This document shows, piece by piece, positions 2,776 through 42,738 of a stretch of DNA of 64,000 bases (position 1 is its first letter; each line of letters starts with the position of its first letter). Below the pieces are notes generated by a model. The model did no database searches, was not told the origin of the DNA, and saw nothing but the letters and a program-made list of their open reading frames with translations. Position numbers and translations under genes: made by a program. Origin of the DNA: a virus; the IMG/VR virus record IMGVR_UViG_3300042691_050360, positions 64,001 through 128,000 of that record. One strand, 5' to 3'.

Positions 2776-4533
2776 ATGATAGACGGTCAAAGCGAACAAT
2801 CAAAAACTAGAAAGGCAATGAAGAGACACGAAATTGTATCTTCAGACAAAGAGTCTTTCAGAGAATGTAAAAGTGATCTTATTAAGAAAATTGCTATGGA
2901 TGAAAGCGAAGCTGAAGATGTAGCCAGTTCAATAAGAGAGCTTTTTCTCCCAAAGCTTATGAAAGCAGAGGGTCTGGAAGAGGAAGATATGCCTAAAGAT
3001 TTTATTGGTAAAATGACCGATAACGACGATAACTTCGAAACTGAAACACTAAAAATTGAAGATCATGATGAAGACGAGGAAGAAAGCGATGAATTCGGTT
3101 TTTCTTCCGAAGATGAAGATCATGAAAATGATGCCGATGCCGACGATAACGAAGTAGATGCAAATGAAATCGCCACGATCCACATCACAGTTCCTGCGGA
3201 CAAAATAAGAGAAGTTGAAAAGGCTCTCGAAACTGTTCTGGGTGATACTGATGCTATGTCCGAGGATCCAGCAATAGATCACAAAGAAAACACAATAGGA
3301 GATGAAAATATGAACAAAGAAATTGAAGCTAGAAAAGCTTTACGAAAAACAATTCTCGCAGCTATGGCTGATGACGAAGAAGTTCAACAAGTCTCTCGAA
3401 AGGATGGTTTTGAGCATGCCCCAGGCCAACAATATTTCGAGGAAGAAGAACATTCTACGTTCAAAGGCAATTTGACCGATCCCGATTTCGGGACTCTCGA
3501 TTACGCAGACAATAAGATTCCAAGCTTCCTGAAACTTGAAAAAGACAAGGGACTCAAGGAAATCGATTATACAAACTTCGATGGAACCCCAGAGGATTCA
3601 GAAGAATTCACACTTGCATTCGATGCACTTGCTGAACTCGAAATCCCCTCACAAGGTGATGAAGGACTTTATCACGAACTTGAAATTCCATCCGAAGGTA
3701 AGTTGTCACTCAAAAGAACAGTCCAATCTTCAGCACTTGGAGAATTTGACGCGAACGTCGCCGAAGAGGCACTTGCGTTTGCTCTTAAAACCGCTGGTGT
3801 AGAAGAAGAAGACCTTGGCAAATTGACATACGCTGAAGCACTTGACTTGTTCAAGGCTATTAAGACGGCAGAAAAGAGCGACTGCGATGCAGATCGTGTT
3901 ATGGAAGAAACACCTAACAATCCTAAAGAAGCCGTTACAGAAAAGGAAAATCGAAAACACACTGGCACCGAAGAAATTGATCCAGAAAAAGAGCATGAGC
4001 GAAAAGGCAAAGAGCTTTATTCCTCTGCCGATGATCAATATGCTTCTATGCTCCGCAAACTTATGAAGGGTGCGTCTGAGCAAGATGAAGATAAAGAAGC
4101 TGGAGTCATGATCGAAGATCCAAATGCAGATGTCGTTGTTTCTGGTAAAGAAGATGCTGACGAAAAGACCAAAATGGCAAAAGAAGCAGAACTCTTCAGA
4201 GCACGACTCAAAACAGCCTATGCAATGTCAACAAAGCTTGCTACAGCAGGCCTATTGCCAACAGAAGAGCTTGACACTTACGCAGACGGCATGATCAGCG
4301 ATGGTCTTACCGTTACTGCTATGATTCGACAAACAAAACTTATGCTTAATTCAGCTGCTGCTAATTCAGAGAGGCTTGCCTCCAATTCAGCACCACGAGT
4401 TGCTACTGCCGGGATTTCCTTTAATCCTACGGTCAGAGGAGCTAGTGCAGATTTAAGCGGTGTATCAGAAATCCAAAACGCTTTGAAGAATATTGGATGG
4501 ACTGCACCACAAGTTACTGAGATGGAGGATTGA
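2776..4533 (+). CDS. Putative capsid scaffolding protein (highly acidic)
   Basis: 585 aa, very E/D-rich, helical C-terminus, SD AGGA, two genes upstream of the capsid protein. Confidence 0.55.
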   Translation: MIDGQSEQSKTRKAMKRHEIVSSDKESFRECKSDLIKKIAMDESEAEDVASSIRELFLPKLMKAEGLEEEDMPKDFIGKMTDNDDNFETETLKIEDHDEDEEESDEFGFSSEDEDHENDADADDNEVDANEIATIHITVPADKIREVEKALETVLGDTDAMSEDPAIDHKENTIGDENMNKEIEARKALRKTILAAMADDEEVQQVSRKDGFEHAPGQQYFEEEEHSTFKGNLTDPDFGTLDYADNKIPSFLKLEKDKGLKEIDYTNFDGTPEDSEEFTLAFDALAELEIPSQGDEGLYHELEIPSEGKLSLKRTVQSSALGEFDANVAEEALAFALKTAGVEEEDLGKLTYAEALDLFKAIKTAEKSDCDADRVMEETPNNPKEAVTEKENRKHTGTEEIDPEKEHERKGKELYSSADDQYASMLRKLMKGASEQDEDKEAGVMIEDPNADVVVSGKEDADEKTKMAKEAELFRARLKTAYAMSTKLATAGLLPTEELDTYADGMISDGLTVTAMIRQTKLMLNSAAANSERLASNSAPRVATAGISFNPTVRGASADLSGVSEIQNALKNIGWTAPQVTEMED

Positions 4534-7977: not shown

Positions 7978-8955
7978 TTACTGCCCCAATCCCCAAAGAG
8001 GATATTGAACGAAGAGATTTGGATTAGCCCCTAGACCAACCGTTCCGCCTGTAAATCCGCGAAGAGCACCATTGGTTAGATTCATTCCAAATGCCGGGGT
8101 GGCACTTACACCATACTCCACTGCAGTTGGTGTGAAGGCGAGAAACTTACCCAATTGGTAATATTTTGCCGAGCCGTCTGCGTGTCCAACAATAACTCCG
8201 CCGAATGCAGCTCTTACTTCATCCGCTGGTACAGTTTGAAGTGCAGAGTAATTGGCTGTTTGCTTGCCGAGCTCCCATGCCCAGAACTCTCTTACAGCAG
8301 GAGGGAAAACGGTGACTGAATTTGATGAAGCATCTGTGCCGTATGCAATTGGCACAACACCGATCTGGAGGTTGCCAGATTCCATGAGAATACCTGCCGC
8401 AGAAGTATTTGGTAGAGCTGTCATACTTCCACCAAGCCAGCTATTCCGGAACATGGTTGATGATCCTGGTGCTCGATTCCAGGTGTTAAGCTGACCAGTG
8501 AGAGAGGTGTTGAGGAGATAGCTTCCGGTTACCTGTCCGCATTGTGCCCAGCTTCCAGCAGGACAGCTAGGGGTAGATGCATTGGTATTTCCGCGAGATG
8601 TGTTGAAGTAGAGTTGGACATTCTTAACATAAGGCTGTGTCCACTTCTGCCAAGAGAAGTGATTAACTCTGTGTGCAAATCCTGCTGATACTCCGCAGTT
8701 TACTGTACCAACTACGTTGTTGAGGGCACCGTTAAGACTAGAGTTTGCGATGCAATCATCATTGCGTGGATACATATCGTCATTATCGGCACCATACATG
8801 ATGACGCCAAGAGAGATCTGTTTTTGATTACTGATGCCGGTGGCTTTCTTTGCTGCTGCCTTGGCTTGAGCGAAGACGGGGAAGAGGATTGCCGCGAGGA
8901 TTGCGATAATCGCAATCACGACAAGAAGTTCGATTAATGTAAAAGCTTTTTTCAT
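7978..8955 (-). CDS. Prepilin-type N-terminal cleavage/methylation protein with H-X9-DG-type C-terminal motif (DUF1559-like)
   Basis: MKKAFTLIELLVVIAIIAILAAILFPVFAQAKAAAKK...SNQKQI.LG..MY..DNDD.YP; GHADGSAK near the C-terminus. Confidence 0.9.
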   Translation of the reverse strand: MKKAFTLIELLVVIAIIAILAAILFPVFAQAKAAAKKATGISNQKQISLGVIMYGADNDDMYPRNDDCIANSSLNGALNNVVGTVNCGVSAGFAHRVNHFSWQKWTQPYVKNVQLYFNTSRGNTNASTPSCPAGSWAQCGQVTGSYLLNTSLTGQLNTWNRAPGSSTMFRNSWLGGSMTALPNTSAAGILMESGNLQIGVVPIAYGTDASSNSVTVFPPAVREFWAWELGKQTANYSALQTVPADEVRAAFGGVIVGHADGSAKYYQLGKFLAFTPTAVEYGVSATPAFGMNLTNGALRGFTGGTVGLGANPNLFVQYPLWGLGQ

Positions 8956-36281: not shown

Positions 36282-36356
36282 TGGCACCGGAGTTGGGGTT
36301 CAAACCCAAGCGATAAGGTTTTGGAGACCTTTCGGAAGCAATCTACTCTCTCCGGT
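36282..36356 (-). tRNA. trnW: tRNA-Trp(CCA)
   Basis: Anticodon arm aaggt-CTCCAAA-acctt; encoded CCA; atypical D arm. Confidence 0.75.
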
Positions 36357-36359
36357 GTA

Positions 36360-36434
36360 TGGAGCTCATGGCTAGAATCGAACTAGCTACATTCCTTTTG
36401 CAGAGGAAGCCGTTTGCCAATTGGGTACATGAGC
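36360..36434 (-). tRNA. trnC: tRNA-Cys(GCA)
   Basis: ttcct-CTGCAAA-aggaa; U discriminator; CCA. Confidence 0.9.
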
Positions 36435-36441
36435 TTAAATC

Positions 36442-36515
36442 TGGGAGGAAATGAAAGAATCGAACTTTCATCAGAGGCGTATGATACCTCCGCTTTACCA
36501 TTAAGCTAATTTCCC
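36442..36515 (-). tRNA. tRNA-Met/Ile(CAT)
   Basis: gaggt-ATCATAC-gcctc; cloverleaf with CCA. Confidence 0.8.
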
Positions 36516-36521
36516 GTAAAA

Positions 36522-36596
36522 TGGTATCCACGCTTGGATTTGAACCAAGAACCTCAATCTTGTAAGGATTTTGCTCTACCGTTGAGCTACGCGGAT
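36522..36596 (-). tRNA. trnV: tRNA-Val(TAC)
   Basis: aatc-CTTACAA-gatt; CCA. Confidence 0.85.
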
Positions 36597-36600
36597 GGAC

Positions 36601-36698
36601 TGGCACCCATTCATGGATTCGAACCACAATTAACTCTTCCTTACTGGGCACCTTGATGCACAGAAAAGAGAGTTGTCCTGCCTTTAGACGAAATGGGT
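36601..36698 (-). tRNA. tRNA with 24-nt anticodon-loop insertion, most likely Gln(TTG); Glu or Lys alternatives
   Basis: Intact acceptor, D and T arms; stem actct/agagt encloses 31 nt; removing 24 nt can give CTTTGGA. Confidence 0.65.
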
Positions 36699-36704
36699 GT
36701 GAAA

Positions 36705-36776
36705 TGGTGTTGCCCGAGGAATTGAACCCCGCCTTCTCCCGCGAAGAGACGCTCTACCAACTGAGCTAGAAGCAAC
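36705..36776 (-). tRNA. Degenerate tRNA-like gene with shortened anticodon arm, identity undetermined
   Basis: tagctcagttggtagagc D arm, ggttcaattcc T arm, CCA; arm tctc-TTCGCGG-gaga. Confidence 0.5.
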
Positions 36777-36784
36777 ACAAGAAA

Positions 36785-36811
36785 TGGAGGAGGGAAGAGG
36801 TTTCGAAACTT
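36785..36811 (-). pseudogene. 3' fragment of a tRNA (T loop to CCA)
   Basis: ttcgaaa-cctct-tccctcc-t-cca without a 5' half; abuts the endonuclease ORF. Confidence 0.55.
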
Positions 36812-37508
36812 GGTATATGTAAATATGCTGTCAAACAACATTACTAGAGAGTTCCTACAAAAGTTCAAGTCCCGTGAAAGAGTGCCTTTAGTGTGTTTCG
36901 TATGTGGCGGAGATTTTTTACGCCCTAAAAACGATCTACTAAATTCTTTATCCTTGGGACGTAATATAGTTTGTCAAAGATTATGTGGATATAACCACTG
37001 GTTGCTGGCAACCAACCGAGGTAAGGATCATTGTGTTTGCCAGGTATGTGGCACTGAATACGTCAGATCACGATCTCAAGTGGCGAGAACTCCAAATAAG
37101 TTTTGCTCTAAATCTTGCTCAGTAACGTGGCAAAACAAACACAAAACCACCGGTTACCGACGTTCCAAACTTGAGAAGTATCTTGAAGAAAAGATTCGCA
37201 AAGAGTTTCCAGCTTTACAGTTTGAAGCTAATTGCCGGTCTGTCATTGATTACGAACTTGATTTCTATTTTCCGACTTTGAAGTTCGCAATAGAAGTAAA
37301 CGGGATTACGCACTATCGTCCTGTTTACAGCGAAGCCCGGTTCAAGCGTACAAAGGAGATTGACGCTGAAAAGAAATTACGTTGCAGTGAACTAGGTATC
37401 ACCTTGTATGTGATACCTAATACCATTCATGCCTTTACAGCTGAATTCGGGGATATAACATGGAGTGAGATGCTGGATTCAGCTGTAAGCCCGCTACGGC
37501 CTACTTAG
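36810..37508 (+). CDS. Zinc-finger plus PD-(D/E)xK (Vsr/DUF559-like) endonuclease, probable homing endonuclease in the tRNA array
   Basis: CFVCG, CQVCG, FCSKSC; SKLE...ELDFYFP.LKFAIEVNG..HY; antisense to the tRNAs. Confidence 0.75.
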   Translation: MVYVNMLSNNITREFLQKFKSRERVPLVCFVCGGDFLRPKNDLLNSLSLGRNIVCQRLCGYNHWLLATNRGKDHCVCQVCGTEYVRSRSQVARTPNKFCSKSCSVTWQNKHKTTGYRRSKLEKYLEEKIRKEFPALQFEANCRSVIDYELDFYFPTLKFAIEVNGITHYRPVYSEARFKRTKEIDAEKKLRCSELGITLYVIPNTIHAFTAEFGDITWSEMLDSAVSPLRPT

Positions 37509-37540
37509 ATTAGCAATATAGCTCAGCACACCCAATATCC
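37450..37540 (-). pseudogene. Degenerate copy of tRNA-Ser(GCT) overlapping the endonuclease 3' end
   Basis: Shares ggata..tggagt..gat, acttagattagcaat and aatatcc with 37640..37730. Confidence 0.55.
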
Positions 37541-37548
37541 TCAAAATA

Positions 37549-37636
37549 TGGTGGGGAATGTAGGATTTGAACCCACGGAACCTTTCAGTCCTGCTGTTTT
37601 CAAGACAGCTGCAATCGGCCTCTATGCGAATTCCCC
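37549..37636 (-). tRNA. trnS: tRNA-Ser(TGA)
   Basis: gctgt-CTTGAAA-acagc; long variable arm; CCA. Confidence 0.9.
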
Positions 37637-37639
37637 GTA

Positions 37640-37730
37640 TGGCGGATACACTGGAGTACGATTCCAAAGCCTTTTACAGCCCACTTAGATTAGCAATCTA
37701 GTCCGGCAAACCTGTCCGGTTGTAATATCC
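37640..37730 (-). tRNA. trnS: tRNA-Ser(GCT)
   Basis: taga-TTGCTAA-tcta; long variable arm; atypical D and T loops; CCA. Confidence 0.8.
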
Positions 37731-37737
37731 TTAAATC

Positions 37738-37813
37738 TGGTGCTCCCCTCCGAGTACGATCCGGAAACCTTCCCATCTTCAGCGGGACGCTCTACCAATT
37801 GAGCTAGAGAAGC
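37738..37813 (-). tRNA. trnF: tRNA-Phe(GAA)
   Basis: tcccg-CTGAAGA-tggga; CCA. Confidence 0.9.
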
Positions 37814-37821
37814 ACATAATC

Positions 37822-37913
37822 TGGAGCGAGATGAGAGATTCGAACTCTCAAAATCTGCTTCCTGTAATGAGATCACAGGAAGGCAGGCGTTTTACCATTA
37901 AAACTAATCCCGC
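37822..37913 (-). tRNA. trnG: tRNA-Gly(TCC) with 17-nt anticodon-loop insertion
   Basis: GCGGGAT acceptor, U discriminator; cctgc-CTTCC[tgtgatctcattacagg]AA-gcaga. Confidence 0.8.
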
Positions 37914-37918
37914 TCACT

Positions 37919-37938
37919 TATTTAATTGTCAAAGAACA
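37919..37938 (-). promoter_or_regulatory. boxA-like element between terminator and first tRNA of array 1
   Basis: tgttctttgacaattaaata; ttgacaattaaata is identical at 40051..40064. Confidence 0.5.
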
Positions 37939-37942
37939 TAAT

Positions 37943-37976
37943 AAAAAAACCCCGAAGATCTTGCCTTCGGGGTTTT
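37943..37976 (-). terminator. Attenuator terminator upstream of tRNA array 1
   Basis: aaaaccccgaag-gcaagat-cttcggggttttttt. Confidence 0.9.
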
Positions 37977-38002
37977 GGTGAAATTTTTGTTAAAGAAAAA
38001 TT

Positions 38003-38065
38003 CTAGCCATTACCCTGAAGGGTTGACCACATAAAGCATCCTTGACTAAATTGCGAATTTCTCAT
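38003..38065 (-). CDS. Leader peptide 1 (MRNSQFSQGCFMWSTLQGNG) of tRNA array 1 attenuator
   Basis: SD AGGA 9 nt upstream; codons 4-14 match downstream tRNAs; its ccttcagggt is complementary to the terminator 5' arm. Confidence 0.8.
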   Translation of the reverse strand: MRNSQFSQGCFMWSTLQGNG

Positions 38066-38084
38066 TGTTATATTTCCTATGTTA

Positions 38085-38117
38085 ATGTTATACGCATTAA
38101 CTACCTTCTTTGTTCCG
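38085..38117 (-). promoter_or_regulatory. Candidate promoter for tRNA array 1 (GGAAC-N17-CGTATAA, ECF-like)
   Basis: ggaac-aaagaaggtagttaatg-cgtataac. Confidence 0.5.
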
Positions 38118-38142
38118 TGTTTTTTTAAAATTTATTTAAAAA

Positions 38143-38580
38143 TCACAATTCCAACAAATCCATTTTGACTCCAGCTTCTTCGAACATGATCTCGGTGAGC
38201 TTAAAAGCATCCTTCCATCTTTCATATCTTTCACCGGCGACAGGAACGGATACGCATCTGGAAATGCCACTTTGGATAATCATCCCTGCACATGCAGAAC
38301 AAGGCATGAACGGATATGTATAGATTGTGTGATTGGTGAGATCTTTATGTGCCATTAAAATAGCATTCACTTCCGCATGCACTATCATTTTCAGTTTAGT
38401 GTCACGGTCATTATATCTTTCTTCTGTGTCTTCCACCCCTCTAGGGAAGCCATTATAGCCCACAGACACAATCCTATTTCTATCATCGACAATTACGCCT
38501 CCAACTTGGGACGAGGGGTCTTTCGAGTATGTTGACACTTGTTTCGCTAATTCTAGAAATCTTCTATCCCACTTGTTCAT
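38143..38580 (-). CDS. dCMP deaminase
   Basis: KWDRRFL...SKDPS.QVG, GYNGFPRG, HAEVNAI, PCSAC; ATG 38580 overlaps the upstream stop. Confidence 0.92.
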   Translation of the reverse strand: MNKWDRRFLELAKQVSTYSKDPSSQVGGVIVDDRNRIVSVGYNGFPRGVEDTEERYNDRDTKLKMIVHAEVNAILMAHKDLTNHTIYTYPFMPCSACAGMIIQSGISRCVSVPVAGERYERWKDAFKLTEIMFEEAGVKMDLLEL

Positions 38581-38765
38581 AACTTTACTCCAATTTTCAC
38601 CCCAATTAAAGCAGGTGACCATGAATCATCAGGGTATTGTGTTTTTTCTTGGAAATCATACACTTCTGTGATTGAATATCTTTCATTATCAAATTCGACA
38701 AAAATTTCATCTTCATCAAGCCAATCTAAATCATTTAATTTTTCACGCATTTCCTTAACTGTCAT
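38577..38765 (-). CDS. Small hypothetical protein
   Basis: MTVKEMREKL start; CGTATAA 13 nt upstream. Confidence 0.65.
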   Translation of the reverse strand: MTVKEMREKLNDLDWLDEDEIFVEFDNERYSITEVYDFQEKTQYPDDSWSPALIGVKIGVKL

Positions 38766-38821
38766 AACTTTTTATACGCTTTAGATGGAGGTTTTTCGGG
38801 CAAAAATAGGAAATTCAGATT

Positions 38822-39154
38822 GTGTGGTATAGGTATTCACAACAGCAAATTCTACCTCCAGTCCATGAAGGTTGCCATTGCTATATAGAAACCCTTCCCA
38901 GCGGAAACACAATCTGGCAATTTTCTGGAAATACTTGTGACACCTGCAAGGCACTAGCTAGAGAATATAACAGCAAGCAAAACTCAATAATTAATGAGCC
39001 AGCCCAAATAGATCCAGTTATTCCTGAGCCACCAGCTGTCATGGAAGATCCTGTGGAGCAACCTGAAGAAGAACCAGTAGCAGAAGATCCCACCACCCAG
39101 CCTATGCTATTTAGAAATCTCAGATATACACCTAAAAAGTTTTACAATCTATAG
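38822..39154 (+). CDS. Small Cys-containing protein (PPVHEGCHC)
   Basis: PP.H..C.C motif recalls MuF/minor head proteins; WYRYSQ N-terminus. Confidence 0.55.
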   Translation: MWYRYSQQQILPPVHEGCHCYIETLPSGNTIWQFSGNTCDTCKALAREYNSKQNSIINEPAQIDPVIPEPPAVMEDPVEQPEEEPVAEDPTTQPMLFRNLRYTPKKFYNL

Positions 39155-39165
39155 TTTGTCAAATT

Positions 39166-39426
39166 TTAATTCTTTTCGCCGCCAAAAAGTTCTATATACT
39201 CCGGGTATTCGTCGAGCTTAGACCTTAAAATATGCAATCTCGCCCGCGACTCTTCAATTGTCTTCACATTCAGAACTTCTTGCAAGGCAGCCCTGAGCCT
39301 TTGATCATTCACGATTAGCCTCCAATTATCTTTGTATTGCGGAAATAAGAGTTGCTCAAGGATCTTAGTGACACTTTCATCCTCAGATAGTGTTCTTTTT
39401 CTGTCGTAAAATTCTTCTCTTGTCAT
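39166..39426 (-). CDS. Hypothetical protein
   Basis: Start moved to ATG 39426 (CGTATAT 13 nt upstream); the longer track version overlaps tRNA-Ala. Confidence 0.6.
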   Translation of the reverse strand: MTREEFYDRKRTLSEDESVTKILEQLLFPQYKDNWRLIVNDQRLRAALQEVLNVKTIEESRARLHILRSKLDEYPEYIELFGGEKN

Positions 39427-39454
39427 ATTTTTATATACGAATCCAGATTGTGTT

Positions 39455-39531
39455 TGGTGGAGCCGACGGGGTTCGAACCCGCAAGACTTCTGATTGCAAA
39501 TCAGACGCTTTCCCAAATAAGCTTCGGCCCC
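39455..39531 (-). tRNA. trnA: tRNA-Ala(TGC)
   Basis: tctga-TTTGCAA-tcaga; G3-U70 pair; CCA. Confidence 0.92.
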
Positions 39532-39537
39532 GAAAAC

Positions 39538-39614
39538 TGGTCAGTTAGGTGAGATTTGAACTCACACACCTTTGAGTCACAATCAAAGGGCTCTACCATT
39601 TAAGCTACTAACTT
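39538..39614 (-). tRNA. trnH: tRNA-His(GTG)
   Basis: tttga-TTGTGAC-tcaaa; CCA. Confidence 0.85.
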
Positions 39615-39617
39615 GTG

Positions 39618-39694
39618 TGGTGTCGTGTGAAAGACTCGAACTTTCAAATTTCAGGTTCTCAACCTGTTGCCTCTACCAATTTGGCTAACACGAC
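39618..39694 (-). tRNA. trnL: tRNA-Leu(GAG), short variable loop
   Basis: cagg-TTGAGAA-cctg; CCA. Confidence 0.85.
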
Positions 39695-39697
39695 GTT

Positions 39698-39777
39698 TGG
39701 TACCAGCGGCGAGATTCGAACTCGCAAAAGCTACGGTTCTAAACCGTATTGTTGTACCATTCACTTGCCACGCTGGT
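39698..39777 (-). tRNA. trnL: tRNA-Leu(TAG), short variable loop
   Basis: tacgg-TTTAGAA-ccgta; CCA. Confidence 0.85.
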
Positions 39778-39785
39778 AGAAATCT

Positions 39786-39870
39786 TGGTGGAGACAGTAG
39801 GACTCGAACCTACGAACCGATTAAAGCACTGGGTTACAGCCAGTTGTAATTGCCGCTATACGATGTCTCC
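39786..39870 (-). tRNA. trnY: tRNA-Tyr(GTA)
   Basis: actgg-CTGTAAC-ccagt; long variable region; CCA. Confidence 0.9.
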
Positions 39871-39879
39871 AGAAAAACT

Positions 39880-39958
39880 TGGTCTGCGTGACAAGATTCG
39901 AACTTGTGTGCTTGACCTCCCAAGGGCCACGAGGTAGACCAGACTCCTCAACACGCAG
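39880..39958 (-). tRNA. trnP: tRNA-Pro(TGG)
   Basis: tggcc-CTTGGGA-ggtca; C1-G72; CCA. Confidence 0.88.
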
Positions 39959-39967
39959 ATAAATTTT

Positions 39968-40049
39968 TGGCTGGATGAAGGTCGTCCTTAGTCATCCACT
40001 TACGGGTCACCACTTTGGAGAGTTTGATTTCAACCCTGGCACCACCCCG
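39968..40049 (-). ncRNA. Unclassified structured RNA ending in CCA at the head of tRNA array 2
   Basis: Hairpin tggatga..aagg-acga-ccttcatcca followed by GCCA; not a cloverleaf. Confidence 0.35.
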
Positions 40050-40071
40050 ATATTTAATTGTCAATGTTCGT

Positions 40072-40112
40072 AAAAGAAAAACCCCCGAAAGATTTTAGTC
40101 CTTCGGGGGTTT
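40072..40112 (-). terminator. Attenuator terminator upstream of tRNA array 2
   Basis: aaacccccgaagga-ctaaaa-tctttcgggggtttttctttt. Confidence 0.9.
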
Positions 40113-40138
40113 GCAGCTTGTCGATACGCAACGAGCCA

Positions 40139-40192
40139 CTACCCCGAAGAGGGGGCGAGTGCTGGATATAGATGGCTGAGCGTATTGATCAT
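40139..40192 (-). CDS. Leader peptide 2 (MINTLSHLYPALAPSSG) of tRNA array 2 attenuator
   Basis: SD AGGA upstream; codons 7-12 CAT CTA TAT CCA GCA CTC match the six downstream tRNAs; cttcggggt pairs with the terminator 5' arm. Confidence 0.88.
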   Translation of the reverse strand: MINTLSHLYPALAPSSG

Positions 40193-40258
40193 TTTTGTGT
40201 TCCTAAATTGTTTTACAAGAGTTAAGACGATTATTCCTCTAAGAAAGTTTCATCTTTT

Positions 40259-41182
40259 TTATTTTTTTCTAATTTTTTTCACAAGTTCGATAGGTTTTTT
40301 TTTAATTAGTTTACTTACTCTCGCGTCATTGTCAGAAACCTGCGGGTTGTTAGCATTTAAAAATTGTGAAAATGGAAGTTTTTTAATTTGTGCAAGATTG
40401 TGAATTTTGATTTCTCTTTGTGCCTTTTTTTGAATTTTTTTCAAAAAATTAAAAACAGGTTTAGTGTGCGAAATTTTTTGAAAAATCACTTCTTTGTACT
40501 GGGTTGGAAAAATGATTGTTTCCCTGTATGAATAAATTCCCCCGACATTTATTTTAAAATTGCCTTTAATATCTTCAAAAATCCAATCTTTATCAATGAA
40601 TGATCGAGCATTTTTTTCTAATTTACTCCACTCTTTTTCACCTTTCATTATAAAAGGATACTTGAATCTGCCAAAAGTTAAAAAATTGAGTTCATCTTCA
40701 CTGATTTTATTATTTTTCATCAACTTTTTTCGACTGAATTTACTTAAATTCGATACTTTTTCTTGAAAATATTCATCAGTTATGAAATTTGCCTCCTCAC
40801 CCCCAATCCTCGTGAAAAAAGGTCCTTCAATGGCATATAGTTTACTAACCCAATTATTTACTTTGATCAAAGTTGCAATTTTTTTATCATATAAGTATTC
40901 TTGTAAAGTTTTTTTATTTTTGGTTTCAGGTATGCGTGAATCTAAAAATGAATTAAATTCGCCGCTGACTTCTATACTATGACTGAAATTTGCTAATGCA
41001 AGCATTTCTTCTTTATATAATTCACCACTGAAGCCATCTATTATTTCTGGTATTCCAGACAGTTCAGATTCTAAGTAAATAATTCTTTTTTCTGTTTCAG
41101 CAAGCACTTCAGATTTTGTTGAAATATTTTTTTTGCTTTGTCTTTTTTTTGCTGCTTTTTCCTCAAACACAATTTCGCTCAT
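40259..41182 (-). CDS. Hypothetical basic protein
   Basis: 307 aa, K-rich; TGTATAA 14 nt upstream. Confidence 0.6.
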   Translation of the reverse strand: MSEIVFEEKAAKKRQSKKNISTKSEVLAETEKRIIYLESELSGIPEIIDGFSGELYKEEMLALANFSHSIEVSGEFNSFLDSRIPETKNKKTLQEYLYDKKIATLIKVNNWVSKLYAIEGPFFTRIGGEEANFITDEYFQEKVSNLSKFSRKKLMKNNKISEDELNFLTFGRFKYPFIMKGEKEWSKLEKNARSFIDKDWIFEDIKGNFKINVGGIYSYRETIIFPTQYKEVIFQKISHTKPVFNFLKKIQKKAQREIKIHNLAQIKKLPFSQFLNANNPQVSDNDARVSKLIKKKPIELVKKIRKK

Positions 41183-41232: not shown

Positions 41233-42738
41233 TTAAATATTTTTTAAAAACTTTTTCCAACCAGGCCATTCTGATTTATAGATTGAGTGAGGATTGGCTG
41301 GAATATAAGATGGTTTGCCTTTTCTTTTGACTAGCCAATCTTCGCCAGAAGCCACCCCATTTTCTATCATCCATTTCTTGCAATCTTCATAGCTGACAAA
41401 AACAGCCTTCTTAGATTGCACCTTATTCGTACCAAGAAAATCTCCCCAAGAAACCCATCCGTTGTTTTTGTAAGATATATTTGGCTCAAAAGGAACTCCT
41501 AGCGGCCTCTTATCCTTCAATCCTTTAAAATCTTTGACAGATTGTAAACCTAAATCTCTAATAATAGCTCTTGCCTCTTCGAAGCTTAGAAAGTTTCTGT
41601 TGACTGCCGCCTTTCTTTCAAGTAGTAAATCTACAGCGATTCCATAATATGCTAAAGCGTTCACGAGCTCTATTTCAAGATTGTGTTTGTAGGTGATTTC
41701 AACCAATGGAATATTGTTTTGCTCACAATAATCCTTTTTGATTTTGTCTCTTTTCTGTGTTTGTTTCATGGCCTCTTCTCCGCCATAAAACTCCACAGGC
41801 ACGAAATGCTGAATTCCATGAAACTCAATAAGCAATCTAACTTTTTGGTCTTCATCCATAATTGCAATATCAAACGGCAATGGCCTTAAATCAACACAAT
41901 CTGAAAATGTGTATTGATGCAGATGCTTGATATCGTTTGACGCCAGGATGCTACTGATCGTTTTCTCGCCCACACTAACATTTCTCTGATACCCAAGAAA
42001 CTCGGGCCATCCCTCAAATTCTGGGTAGATCTCCCAAGGGTGCGACGGTACAGGTGTTGTTTTTTTATTTTGCGTGATCCATTTTTGAAATTCCATAATG
42101 GAATTTAATTTCAAGGAGTGGACAAACTTTATGCATTCTTCAAAAGATAAGTATTCTTTAAAATGGTAATTTCCATTACCTAGGAAATCACCCATAGAAA
42201 CGAAATCCACACCGTAAGTCTTTCTAGGAGACGCAGGTATATTATCCGGCCTTTCACTGGTTTTCACCCAGTCGTAGAATTCCCCCTCGTTGGTAAAGTT
42301 AAATTGAGATAGATACTCCTTGGCTTCTGAGTAATTCAGGAAGTTTTGATGCTTAGTGATATCCGCCACCCTATCTGTCCTGAAGAAAGCTCCCCATGAT
42401 TTCCACTCTTCCATATAGGTCTTATCAGGCCTCGTTGGAACCAAGCTGTTTAGCTTAAGTTTCCGCCAAGATTCAAATTTTTCTTTTGAGTTTATTCCTT
42501 CCCTGAGTAAATAATCACTGCACTCCGCATATGTCAAGAATTGCTTATCTTTTGCCGCTATATTTCCATTTCCTAGAAAATCGGGCCAGTTCAGGAACTC
42601 AACATAATCCCTATTTGGATTCCTCGGGATGCCAGATGGGATCTTCCCGTCTTTGAACAAAGAATAATACTCTTTGACCGATTTTATTTTCAGATTGTGT
42701 ATGATGGATTTTGCTTTTTCAAATTCTAAATACTGCAT
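41233..42738 (-). CDS. Six-repeat protein with central PD-(D/E)xK nuclease domain
   Basis: Six ~55-60 aa repeats (F.s.eEak...iP..P...Y...w.dFLG); SVGE...LPFD...IEFHGIQH...RDKIK..YC..NNIPLVEI. Confidence 0.75.
   Translation of the reverse strand: MQYLEFEKAKSIIHNLKIKSVKEYYSLFKDGKIPSGIPRNPNRDYVEFLNWPDFLGNGNIAAKDKQFLTYAECSDYLLREGINSKEKFESWRKLKLNSLVPTRPDKTYMEEWKSWGAFFRTDRVADITKHQNFLNYSEAKEYLSQFNFTNEGEFYDWVKTSERPDNIPASPRKTYGVDFVSMGDFLGNGNYHFKEYLSFEECIKFVHSLKLNSIMEFQKWITQNKKTTPVPSHPWEIYPEFEGWPEFLGYQRNVSVGEKTISSILASNDIKHLHQYTFSDCVDLRPLPFDIAIMDEDQKVRLLIEFHGIQHFVPVEFYGGEEAMKQTQKRDKIKKDYCEQNNIPLVEITYKHNLEIELVNALAYYGIAVDLLLERKAAVNRNFLSFEEARAIIRDLGLQSVKDFKGLKDKRPLGVPFEPNISYKNNGWVSWGDFLGTNKVQSKKAVFVSYEDCKKWMIENGVASGEDWLVKRKGKPSYIPANPHSIYKSEWPGWKKFLKNI

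Follow-up and report, generated by a model that had tools for sequence, protein, structure and literature searches.

Leader-peptide attenuators control the ilvGMEDA, thr, trp and his operons of Escherichia coli, and in the pheST leader (pheM) of the same bacterium the speed of decoding controls the supply of a translation component, a synthetase, with one amino acid being sensed. In T-box riboswitches, uncharged tRNA binds the RNA directly and there is no leader open reading frame (ORF). Here we describe two tRNA arrays of a phage which invite comparison with these systems. The stretch analysed, called the window below, comprises 64,000 nucleotides (nt) and corresponds to bases 64,001-128,000 of the 166.5-kb linear virus record IMGVR_UViG_3300042691_050360 (GC content 38.5%, estimated completeness 46%). 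Both arrays are on its minus strand, and each is preceded by a short leader ORF and an intrinsic terminator. The existence of both units and the match between leader codons and array anticodons are confirmed. In our interpretation, a ribosome-mediated attenuator of transcription, of the trp/his/ilv type, would control each array and have the sensed tRNAs as its output, and based on sequence comparison and folding models we give this reading a probability of about 0.85. As in the pheST leader, decoding speed would set the supply of a translation component, but the output would be the sensed tRNAs themselves. As in T-boxes, tRNA status would set terminator read-through, but here a leader ORF is present.

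Two leader units matched to their tRNA arrays

Unit 1 begins with a predicted promoter (40226-40251) with extracytoplasmic function (ECF)/sigmaW-like -35 and -10 boxes 17 nt apart, which was recognized by motif matches and is kept in relatives. It is followed by the Shine-Dalgarno (SD) site AGGA (40201-40204) and by leader ORF 1 of 17 amino acids (aa; 40139-40192), the length and open frame of which are identical in five relatives. Codons 7-12 of this leader (His-Leu-Tyr-Pro-Ala-Leu, 40157-40174) form the putative sensing block, with one codon per array 1 anticodon. Segment 2 (40134-40150) covers the stop codon and, according to folds and consensus pairs, may pair either upstream (1:2) or with the 5' arm of the terminator (2:3 antiterminator). 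The predicted intrinsic terminator 1 (40070-40112, -21.6 kcal/mol) has a 14-bp stem and a U tract, and a boxA-like word of 14 nt, which is not a -35 box, lies 3' of it (40051-40064). Then come a structured non-tRNA RNA of about 85 nt (39966-40050), the first element of array 1, and the tRNAs Pro(TGG), Tyr(GTA), Leu(TAG), Leu(GAG), His(GTG) and Ala(TGC) (39455-39958).

Unit 2 is built in the same way. A predicted promoter with the ECF-like motif of array 1, also supported by relatives (38091-38116), is followed by an SD site (38075-38078) and by leader ORF 2 of 20 aa (38003-38065), which is 21-24 aa long in relatives with the frame kept. Its putative sensing block comprises codons 4-14 (Ser-Gln-Phe-Ser-Gln-Gly-Cys-Phe-Met-Trp-Ser, 38024-38056), each read by array 2 tRNAs, and its segment 2 (38005-38022) has the same two pairing options, as judged from folds and consensus pairs. 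The stem of intrinsic terminator 2 (13 bp and U tract, 37938-37976) is kept with substitutions in relatives, and the boxA-like word 3' of it (37919-37932) begins 19 nt ahead of tRNA-Gly. Array 2 consists of tRNA-Gly(TCC) (37822-37913), Phe(GAA), Ser(GCT) and Ser(TGA) (37549-37813), a weak Ala(CGC)-like gene (36705-36778), Gln(TTG) (36601-36698), and Val(TAC), Met(CAT), Cys(GCA) and Trp(CCA) (36282-36596). Thus, the architecture proposed for both arrays in a first-pass annotation of the window, from promoter and SD site through short ORF, hairpin, terminator and conserved word to the tRNAs, was recovered with all its parts.

The codons of the two leaders match the arrays closely. In leader 1, six consecutive codons cover 6/6 array 1 anticodons, a different one per codon. 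Such a match is reached by 3 per million random leaders drawn with genome codon usage (p ~3e-6) and, if codons are drawn uniformly, by 11 per million. Leader 2 covers 7/8 array 2 anticodons in eight codons, with a chance of 6 per million (genome usage, p ~6e-6) or 47 per million (uniform). If Gln is counted, the score is 8/9 anticodons, reached by 0 per million random leaders, and codons 4-14 are an unbroken matched run. The tRNAs with U34 are probed with A-ending leader codons. When the leaders are exchanged between the arrays, the scores fall to 3/8 and 1/6. These statistics were chosen after the pattern had been seen, and as a check on this all 1,369 ATG-initiated ORFs of 12-25 aa in the genome were ranked: the only ORF to score 6 for array 1 is leader 1, and the only one to score 7 for array 2 is leader 2. 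The suggestion that the central codons follow the array of their own unit is therefore borne out by the 6/6 and 7/8 matches and their loss on swapping, but it fails for two genes of array 2, Val(TAC) and the weak Ala(CGC)-like one, which have no codon in leader 2.

The ends of the ORFs were also said to be complementary to the 5' arm of the terminator, and this agrees with our folds. The only two copies of a shared 16-nt motif in the window are at 40149-40134 and 38020-38005, with 0.08 chance matches expected. In transcripts cut ahead of the 3' arm, it pairs with the terminator 5' arm at -24.8 and -18.0 kcal/mol (z -2.6 and -2.3). The motif is read in different frames in leaders 1 and 2 and in leader 1 crosses the stop codon, which argues that RNA structure and not peptide is conserved there. 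Without a ribosome, as for total translation arrest, the model is ambiguous, since at equilibrium the cut transcript favours the 2:3 antiterminator and the full-length leader the upstream 1:2 hairpin together with the terminator (3:4; z -3.95 and -3.16). For constrained folding, the ribosome was represented as a block extending 10 nt beyond the A site, an assumed footprint. The modelled 5' arm is sequestered to 70-80% while the ribosome is at positions through codon 10 or 11, sequestration drops over codons 12-13 to a fraction of 0.2 or less by codons 13-14, and it is about zero from codon 14 to the stop, so that the matched block ends about where the switch flips. In this model, the antiterminator is free with the ribosome at the control codons and masked with the ribosome at the stop codon.

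From these features we infer translation of the leaders, the direction and size of the switch, and the functions of the promoter and the boxA-like site. The proposed mechanism is as follows. RNA polymerase would start approximately 25-30 nt ahead of the leader ATG, as predicted from the promoter, and a ribosome would load at the SD site. Fast reading of the matched codons would bring the ribosome over segment 2, the 3:4 terminator would form and the tRNAs would stay off. Even a single cognate tRNA that is missing, cleaved, uncharged or under-modified would make the ribosome pause in the sensing block, segment 2 would capture the terminator 5' arm and transcription would enter the array, possibly aided by the boxA-like site. 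Having about one codon for each tRNA, the leader would work as an OR gate, and the new tRNAs would relieve the stall, closing a negative feedback loop.

Leader-array units in relatives and in cultured phages

Pattern and protein searches for relatives led to seven loci with 13 leader-array units. The SD site, the ATG and the open frame are kept in 13/13 units, with AGGA 5-9 nt ahead of the ATG and complementary to the 3' end of the 16S rRNA of candidate hosts. Leader 2 is 20, 21, 22 or 24 aa long, and the indels preserve the frame. The spacing between stop codon and terminator is 27-29 nt in six units, and both hairpins are kept, though a neighbouring structural protein is only 62% identical. 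Loci L023 and L024 end before the array start, and L028 and L029 have no nearby tRNAs. Scans of viral contigs with the leader motif gave nothing or unrelated matches, and a scan with a single protein gave no relatives.

The concordance of leader and array holds in these homologues. Class 1 leaders cover 4-6 anticodons of their own class and 2-4 of the 10-11 anticodons of class 2, and class 2 leaders match 8-10 of the 10-11 anticodons of class 2 and 0-1 of those of class 1. The divergent locus L021 has a rewritten leader of 24 aa covering 15/17 anticodons of its array (chance 25 in 300,000). Here, Asn, Thr, Lys and Ile are present in both leader and array, while the window has them neither in an array nor in a sensing block. 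An Ile codon and an Ile tRNA occur together in L012, L019, L026 and L021 and are both absent in the window, and L012 has neither a Val codon nor a Val tRNA. Co-variation of leader codons with gain and loss of tRNAs, which had been named as a check of the hypothesis, is thus seen. As far as these sequences tell, the leader follows its array over long times and lags behind recent changes.

Units of the same design were found in cultured phages of Bacteroidota. As an independent test, the regions upstream of tRNA matches were examined in four cultured, annotated phages, three of which are linked by similarity. In Cellulophaga phage phi19:1 (KC821607; L246:3552-4143), an ORF missing from the annotation carries His, Gln, Arg, Leu and Pro in six codons and is followed by a terminator and an array of Pro, Gln, His, Leu and Arg tRNAs, a match of 5/5 by amino acid and 4/5 by codon. 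In phi10:1 (KC821618; L251:1554-2100) the leader reads Trp-Ser-Tyr-Ser-Cys-Phe and the tRNAs are Tyr, Trp, Phe, Ser and Cys (5/5, chance 73 in 500,000). The promoter stretches of these two phages are 94.6% identical, but their leaders and tRNA sets are different. Tenacibaculum phage Gundel_1 (MT732474; L252:2531-3136 and 3181-4326) has two units, one like that of phi10:1 and one like that of phi19:1. Cross pairings between the two kinds of units score 0 at the codon level, and the modelled antiterminator dissolves at codons 14-16. The leader ORFs are unannotated in these records, and so are several of the tRNAs. In the fourth, Rhizobium phage RHph_Y65, no matching leader was detected in the 420 nt before the first fetched tRNA (best 2/5), and the true array start may lie outside this region. 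BLASTN against cultured phages returned tRNA and deaminase matches only and no homologue of the window leaders.

The two kinds of cultured-phage arrays differ in anticodon base 36. All tRNAs of phi10:1 have A36 and read codons starting with U, and all of phi19:1 have G36 and read codons starting with C; the arrays of the window sort only in part. The A36 and G36 classes of tRNAs are modified at position 37 by MiaA and TrmD, respectively.

Array genes, their surroundings and the candidate host

Several array 2 tRNAs are unusual. With default settings, ARAGORN misses Gly(TCC), Ser(GCT), Gln(TTG) and Trp(CCA), which were added from the sequence and from orthologues. The Ser(GCT) gene (37640-37730) was read from the sequence, and its L012 orthologue is scored by Rfam; Trp(CCA) (36282-36357) was assigned by sequence and orthologues. 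The Gly(TCC) gene carries a hairpin insert of 17 nt in its anticodon loop (37861-37877), and its orthologues are plain Gly(TCC). The Gln(TTG) gene carries a hairpin insert of 24 nt (36641-36664), also in the anticodon loop; its L011 orthologue shares the body and is Gln(TTG), as is the gene in this slot in every relative reaching it. When the inserts are deleted in silico, ARAGORN calls the identities, and together with the insert-free orthologues this fixes Gly and Gln. Consequently, the Gln call no longer depends on the leader, which had first hinted that the insert-bearing gene is Gln(TTG), an example of how a leader helps to annotate odd tRNAs. The orthologous loops are restored only if the inserts are removed at 36/37 (Gly) and 35/36 (Gln). 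Assignments of the Gly gene as Arg and of the Gln gene as Lys, Glu or Leu were ruled out by orthology. RtcB, a T4-type ligase or a tRNA splicing endonuclease was not found in the 46%-complete genome, where the ligase control was also without any match. The weak Ala(CGC)-like body has orthologues in L012, L014, L016, L019 and L026 (35-40 bits; no Rfam match in the window) and carries the anticodon CGC, TGC or TAC across phages. In L012, a Trp body carries TCG and an Ile body carries TAT.

In both Leu tRNAs of array 1 (39618-39777) the variable loop is short, by which they differ from typical bacterial tRNA-Leu and from the relatives' Leu(TAG) with its long arm. The RNA of about 85 nt ahead of them is predicted to fold into a branched hairpin and an acceptor-like minihelix ending in CCA. 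It is conserved and first in array 1 of some relatives, being found in L012 (21760-21843) and L016 (1292-1375) and absent from L014, L019 and L026; an Rfam search gave no match.

An HNH/homing endonuclease ORF (36810-37508, plus strand; PHROG 559, E 5.5e-17) lies antisense inside array 2 and adjoins a partial Ser(GCT)-like duplicate (about 37460-37545; repeat D10). It is missing from the contiguous arrays of L019 and L026. HNH/homing endonuclease-like ORFs occur repeatedly in or beside arrays, in the window (the one above and 41233-42738) as well as in L011, L012, L014 and L019, and partial tRNA duplications or losses are found at the junctions of inserted ORFs of this kind. In a complete relative, a tRNA-Leu-like gene is split by an apparent group I intron of about 220 nt (L031:1200-1500). 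Just upstream of unit 2, outside the switch, is the neighbouring gene of a dCMP deaminase (38143-38622, minus strand; Pfam PF00383, E 2e-21).

The ECF/sigmaW-like motif is conserved in relatives and has six matches in the genome. Three of these are outside long ORFs and precede leader 1, leader 2 and a pair of tRNA genes, Met(CAT) and Glu(TTC) (G000:C1:427-616, L043), which stands directly behind the motif with no leader. The Met(CAT) of this pair shows initiator-like features, and a leader that is read during elongation could not report on an initiator tRNA. In the complete relative, single tRNAs and small tRNA groups outside the two arrays are without a leader-terminator directly upstream.

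The phage in question, which comes from a lake, is taken to be a jumbo phage of which the record is a fragment, because a relative with the same two arrays has 347 kb and is 99% complete. The host is probably a freshwater member of the Armatimonadota. The best lead is a prepilin-type gene (prepilin N-terminal methylation protein, window 7978-8955), which has 69-71% identity to freshwater Armatimonadota genes and which the phage probably acquired from its host. The products of the genome include two sigma-70-family factors and an enzyme of the CCA-adding/poly(A) polymerase family. A 9-mer starting with ACACAA is present in 65 copies over the whole genome on both strands and is common in relatives too.

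Alternative readings, trigger and comparison with known systems

The interpretation of the units as trp/his-type attenuators was already put forward in the first-pass annotation, and every prediction of it that can be tested at the level of sequence held: open frame, SD site, frame-preserving indels, co-variation, folding and lack of an internal promoter. Several points weigh against it, in addition to the two array 2 genes with no leader codon. The final one or two matched codons are at the edge of the modelled switch, with the 10-nt footprint assumed, and two or three matched codons per leader double as 1:2 pairing. In the RNAalifold consensus of few and close sequences, covariation amounts to one two-sided change in the terminator and none in the antiterminator. 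Among the relatives, which are close to each other and not independent, the array of L014 includes Leu(TAG) but its leader offers just CTT, a codon that Leu(TAG) does not normally decode; next to an inserted ORF, L019, L015 and L018 no longer have Leu, His and Ala, and their leader is unchanged; and L012 has Arg(TCG) in the Trp slot yet retains the Trp codon. Further, one codon per tRNA should give shorter pauses than the tandem runs of classical leaders.

Concerning the natural trigger, loss of functional host tRNA, by defence tRNases, infection-driven tRNA decay or the codon demand of the AT-rich phage, is the best fit, since additional tRNA is no remedy for a missing amino acid; this is the least certain part of our interpretation. 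Attenuators answer slow decoding (PMC11857589), also that from lost tRNA modification (PMC13434334), and phage tRNAs rescue from tRNA nucleases (PMC11555353, PMC12445682). The switch would respond to any slow decoding, and destruction of tRNAs by anticodon nucleases may be one cause of it. It is tempting to speculate that the attenuators are a phage sensor of tRNA-targeting immunity, in which each leader lists the host tRNAs lost to a class of nucleases or to missing modification and only the replacement set that matches is switched on. We hold this idea tentatively, at somewhat below an even chance. It would mean that the design arose or spread across unrelated groups, the jumbo phages of the Armatimonadota type and the Bacteroidota phages, and the sorting of phi10:1 and phi19:1 by base 36 would then fit a shared vulnerability.

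An unlikely, though serious, alternative retains the same switch and differs in the trigger only, which would be amino-acid starvation or plain ribosome load, with defence nucleases uninvolved. Starvation is what trp/his/ilv attenuators sense (PMC11857589). The GC content at third codon positions is 0.34 in the phage against 0.44-0.69 in candidate-host genes and, together with the A-ending codons that probe the U34 tRNAs, would fit a sensor of demand. Markers of tRNases are scarce in four candidate host genomes (DUF4435 1/4, AAA_13 0/4), a search which covered only two families in uncertain and incomplete genomes. However, extra tRNA cannot supply an amino acid, and the downstream genes are tRNAs and not genes for amino-acid biosynthesis or synthetases.

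Three further explanations were considered. It is very improbable that the leaders are vestigial or leaky, with read-through at a fixed rate and the codon match as a remnant. This would be in line with the lag behind recent tRNA loss and anticodon change in L019 and L012 and with the decayed or insert-bearing appearance of several array genes, but it leaves unexplained why the SD site, ATG, frame, both hairpins and the stop-to-terminator spacing are kept among phages with so divergent a neighbouring protein. Ranked just below this, and equally hard to credit, is direct binding of tRNAs or a protein to the leader RNA with no translation, as in T-boxes or protein-dependent antitermination. Terminator/antiterminator pairs are also known in T-boxes and in protein-bound leaders, and the shared motif is read in two frames. 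But a T-box (Stem I with specifier loop, T-box bulge) had no Rfam match at E up to 1 and there was no riboswitch match, the SD site and ATG are invariant, the indels preserve the frame, the matched triplets lie in the frame set by the ATG, and it is not possible for each of 6-11 neighbouring triplets to serve as a T-box specifier.

Least probable of all is an internal promoter that drives the tRNAs and leaves the leader as a separate small transcript: the TTGACA hexamer after the terminator is a perfect -35 hexamer kept in 12/13 units, but it has no -10 box at 15-19 nt in any of 12 homologues (best 2-3/6), a start about 35 nt past it would fall within the first tRNA, whose 5' end is some 19 nt downstream of the hexamer, L021 lacks the word, and the word matches the boxA of rRNA operons. 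The same word occurs in rRNA leaders and spacers of other bacteria (6/80 genome matches lie beside rRNA, 6/6 of them on the same strand), and a related word is found ahead of the 16S gene in candidate hosts. Because of this and of the missing -10 partner, we read the post-terminator word as a candidate boxA-like antitermination site. The internal promoter that had been named as fatal to the attenuation hypothesis was thus not detected.

If the leaders are codon-specific sensors, this bears on the old question of why phages carry tRNAs, to which codon usage, decay of host tRNAs and anti-defence have been proposed as answers. Phage tRNAs would then be an on-demand response, and the leader would name the tRNAs that the phage expects to lose. 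Since phi10:1, phi19:1 and Gundel_1 are cultured with their hosts, the design is directly testable. Last but not least, the leaders could serve as ready-made multi-input reporters for tRNA depletion.

Among described systems, amino-acid operon attenuators such as that of ilvBNC in Corynebacterium glutamicum (PMC11857589) are alike in the SD site, an ORF of 15-25 codons, control codons before segment 2, the 1:2, 2:3 and 3:4 hairpins, the intrinsic terminator and several amino acids per leader. They differ from the units described here, which are phage-borne, precede tRNA genes instead of enzyme genes, and address 6-9 tRNA species with about one codon each instead of tandem runs. The amino-acid leaders of Rfam (His_leader, Trp_leader, Thr_leader, Leu_leader) stayed below the cut-off (best His_leader, 30.3 bits vs 49), with none in six relatives. 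The trn operon of Anabaena PCC 7120 is also a silent accessory tRNA array on a mobile replicon that is turned on under translational stress; however, it is a single array controlled at initiation by the ribbon-helix-helix repressor TrcR and is not codon-specific (PMC10272220). The tRNA-rich region of T5 and SP15, acting against retron-Eco7 and PrrC (PMC11555353), and a phage tRNA-Thr acting against P2-OLD (PMC12445682) likewise replace destroyed host tRNAs, but these effects are credited to a strong promoter or a resistant sequence with no sensing step described, and attenuation is unmentioned in PMC11555353. In a literature search outside of which most subscription journals lay, no account turned up of tRNA arrays, in phages or elsewhere, under the control of a leader peptide. 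The mechanism, attenuation, is a known one, but a form of it in which the regulated product would be the sensed molecule itself was not found described for tRNA genes.

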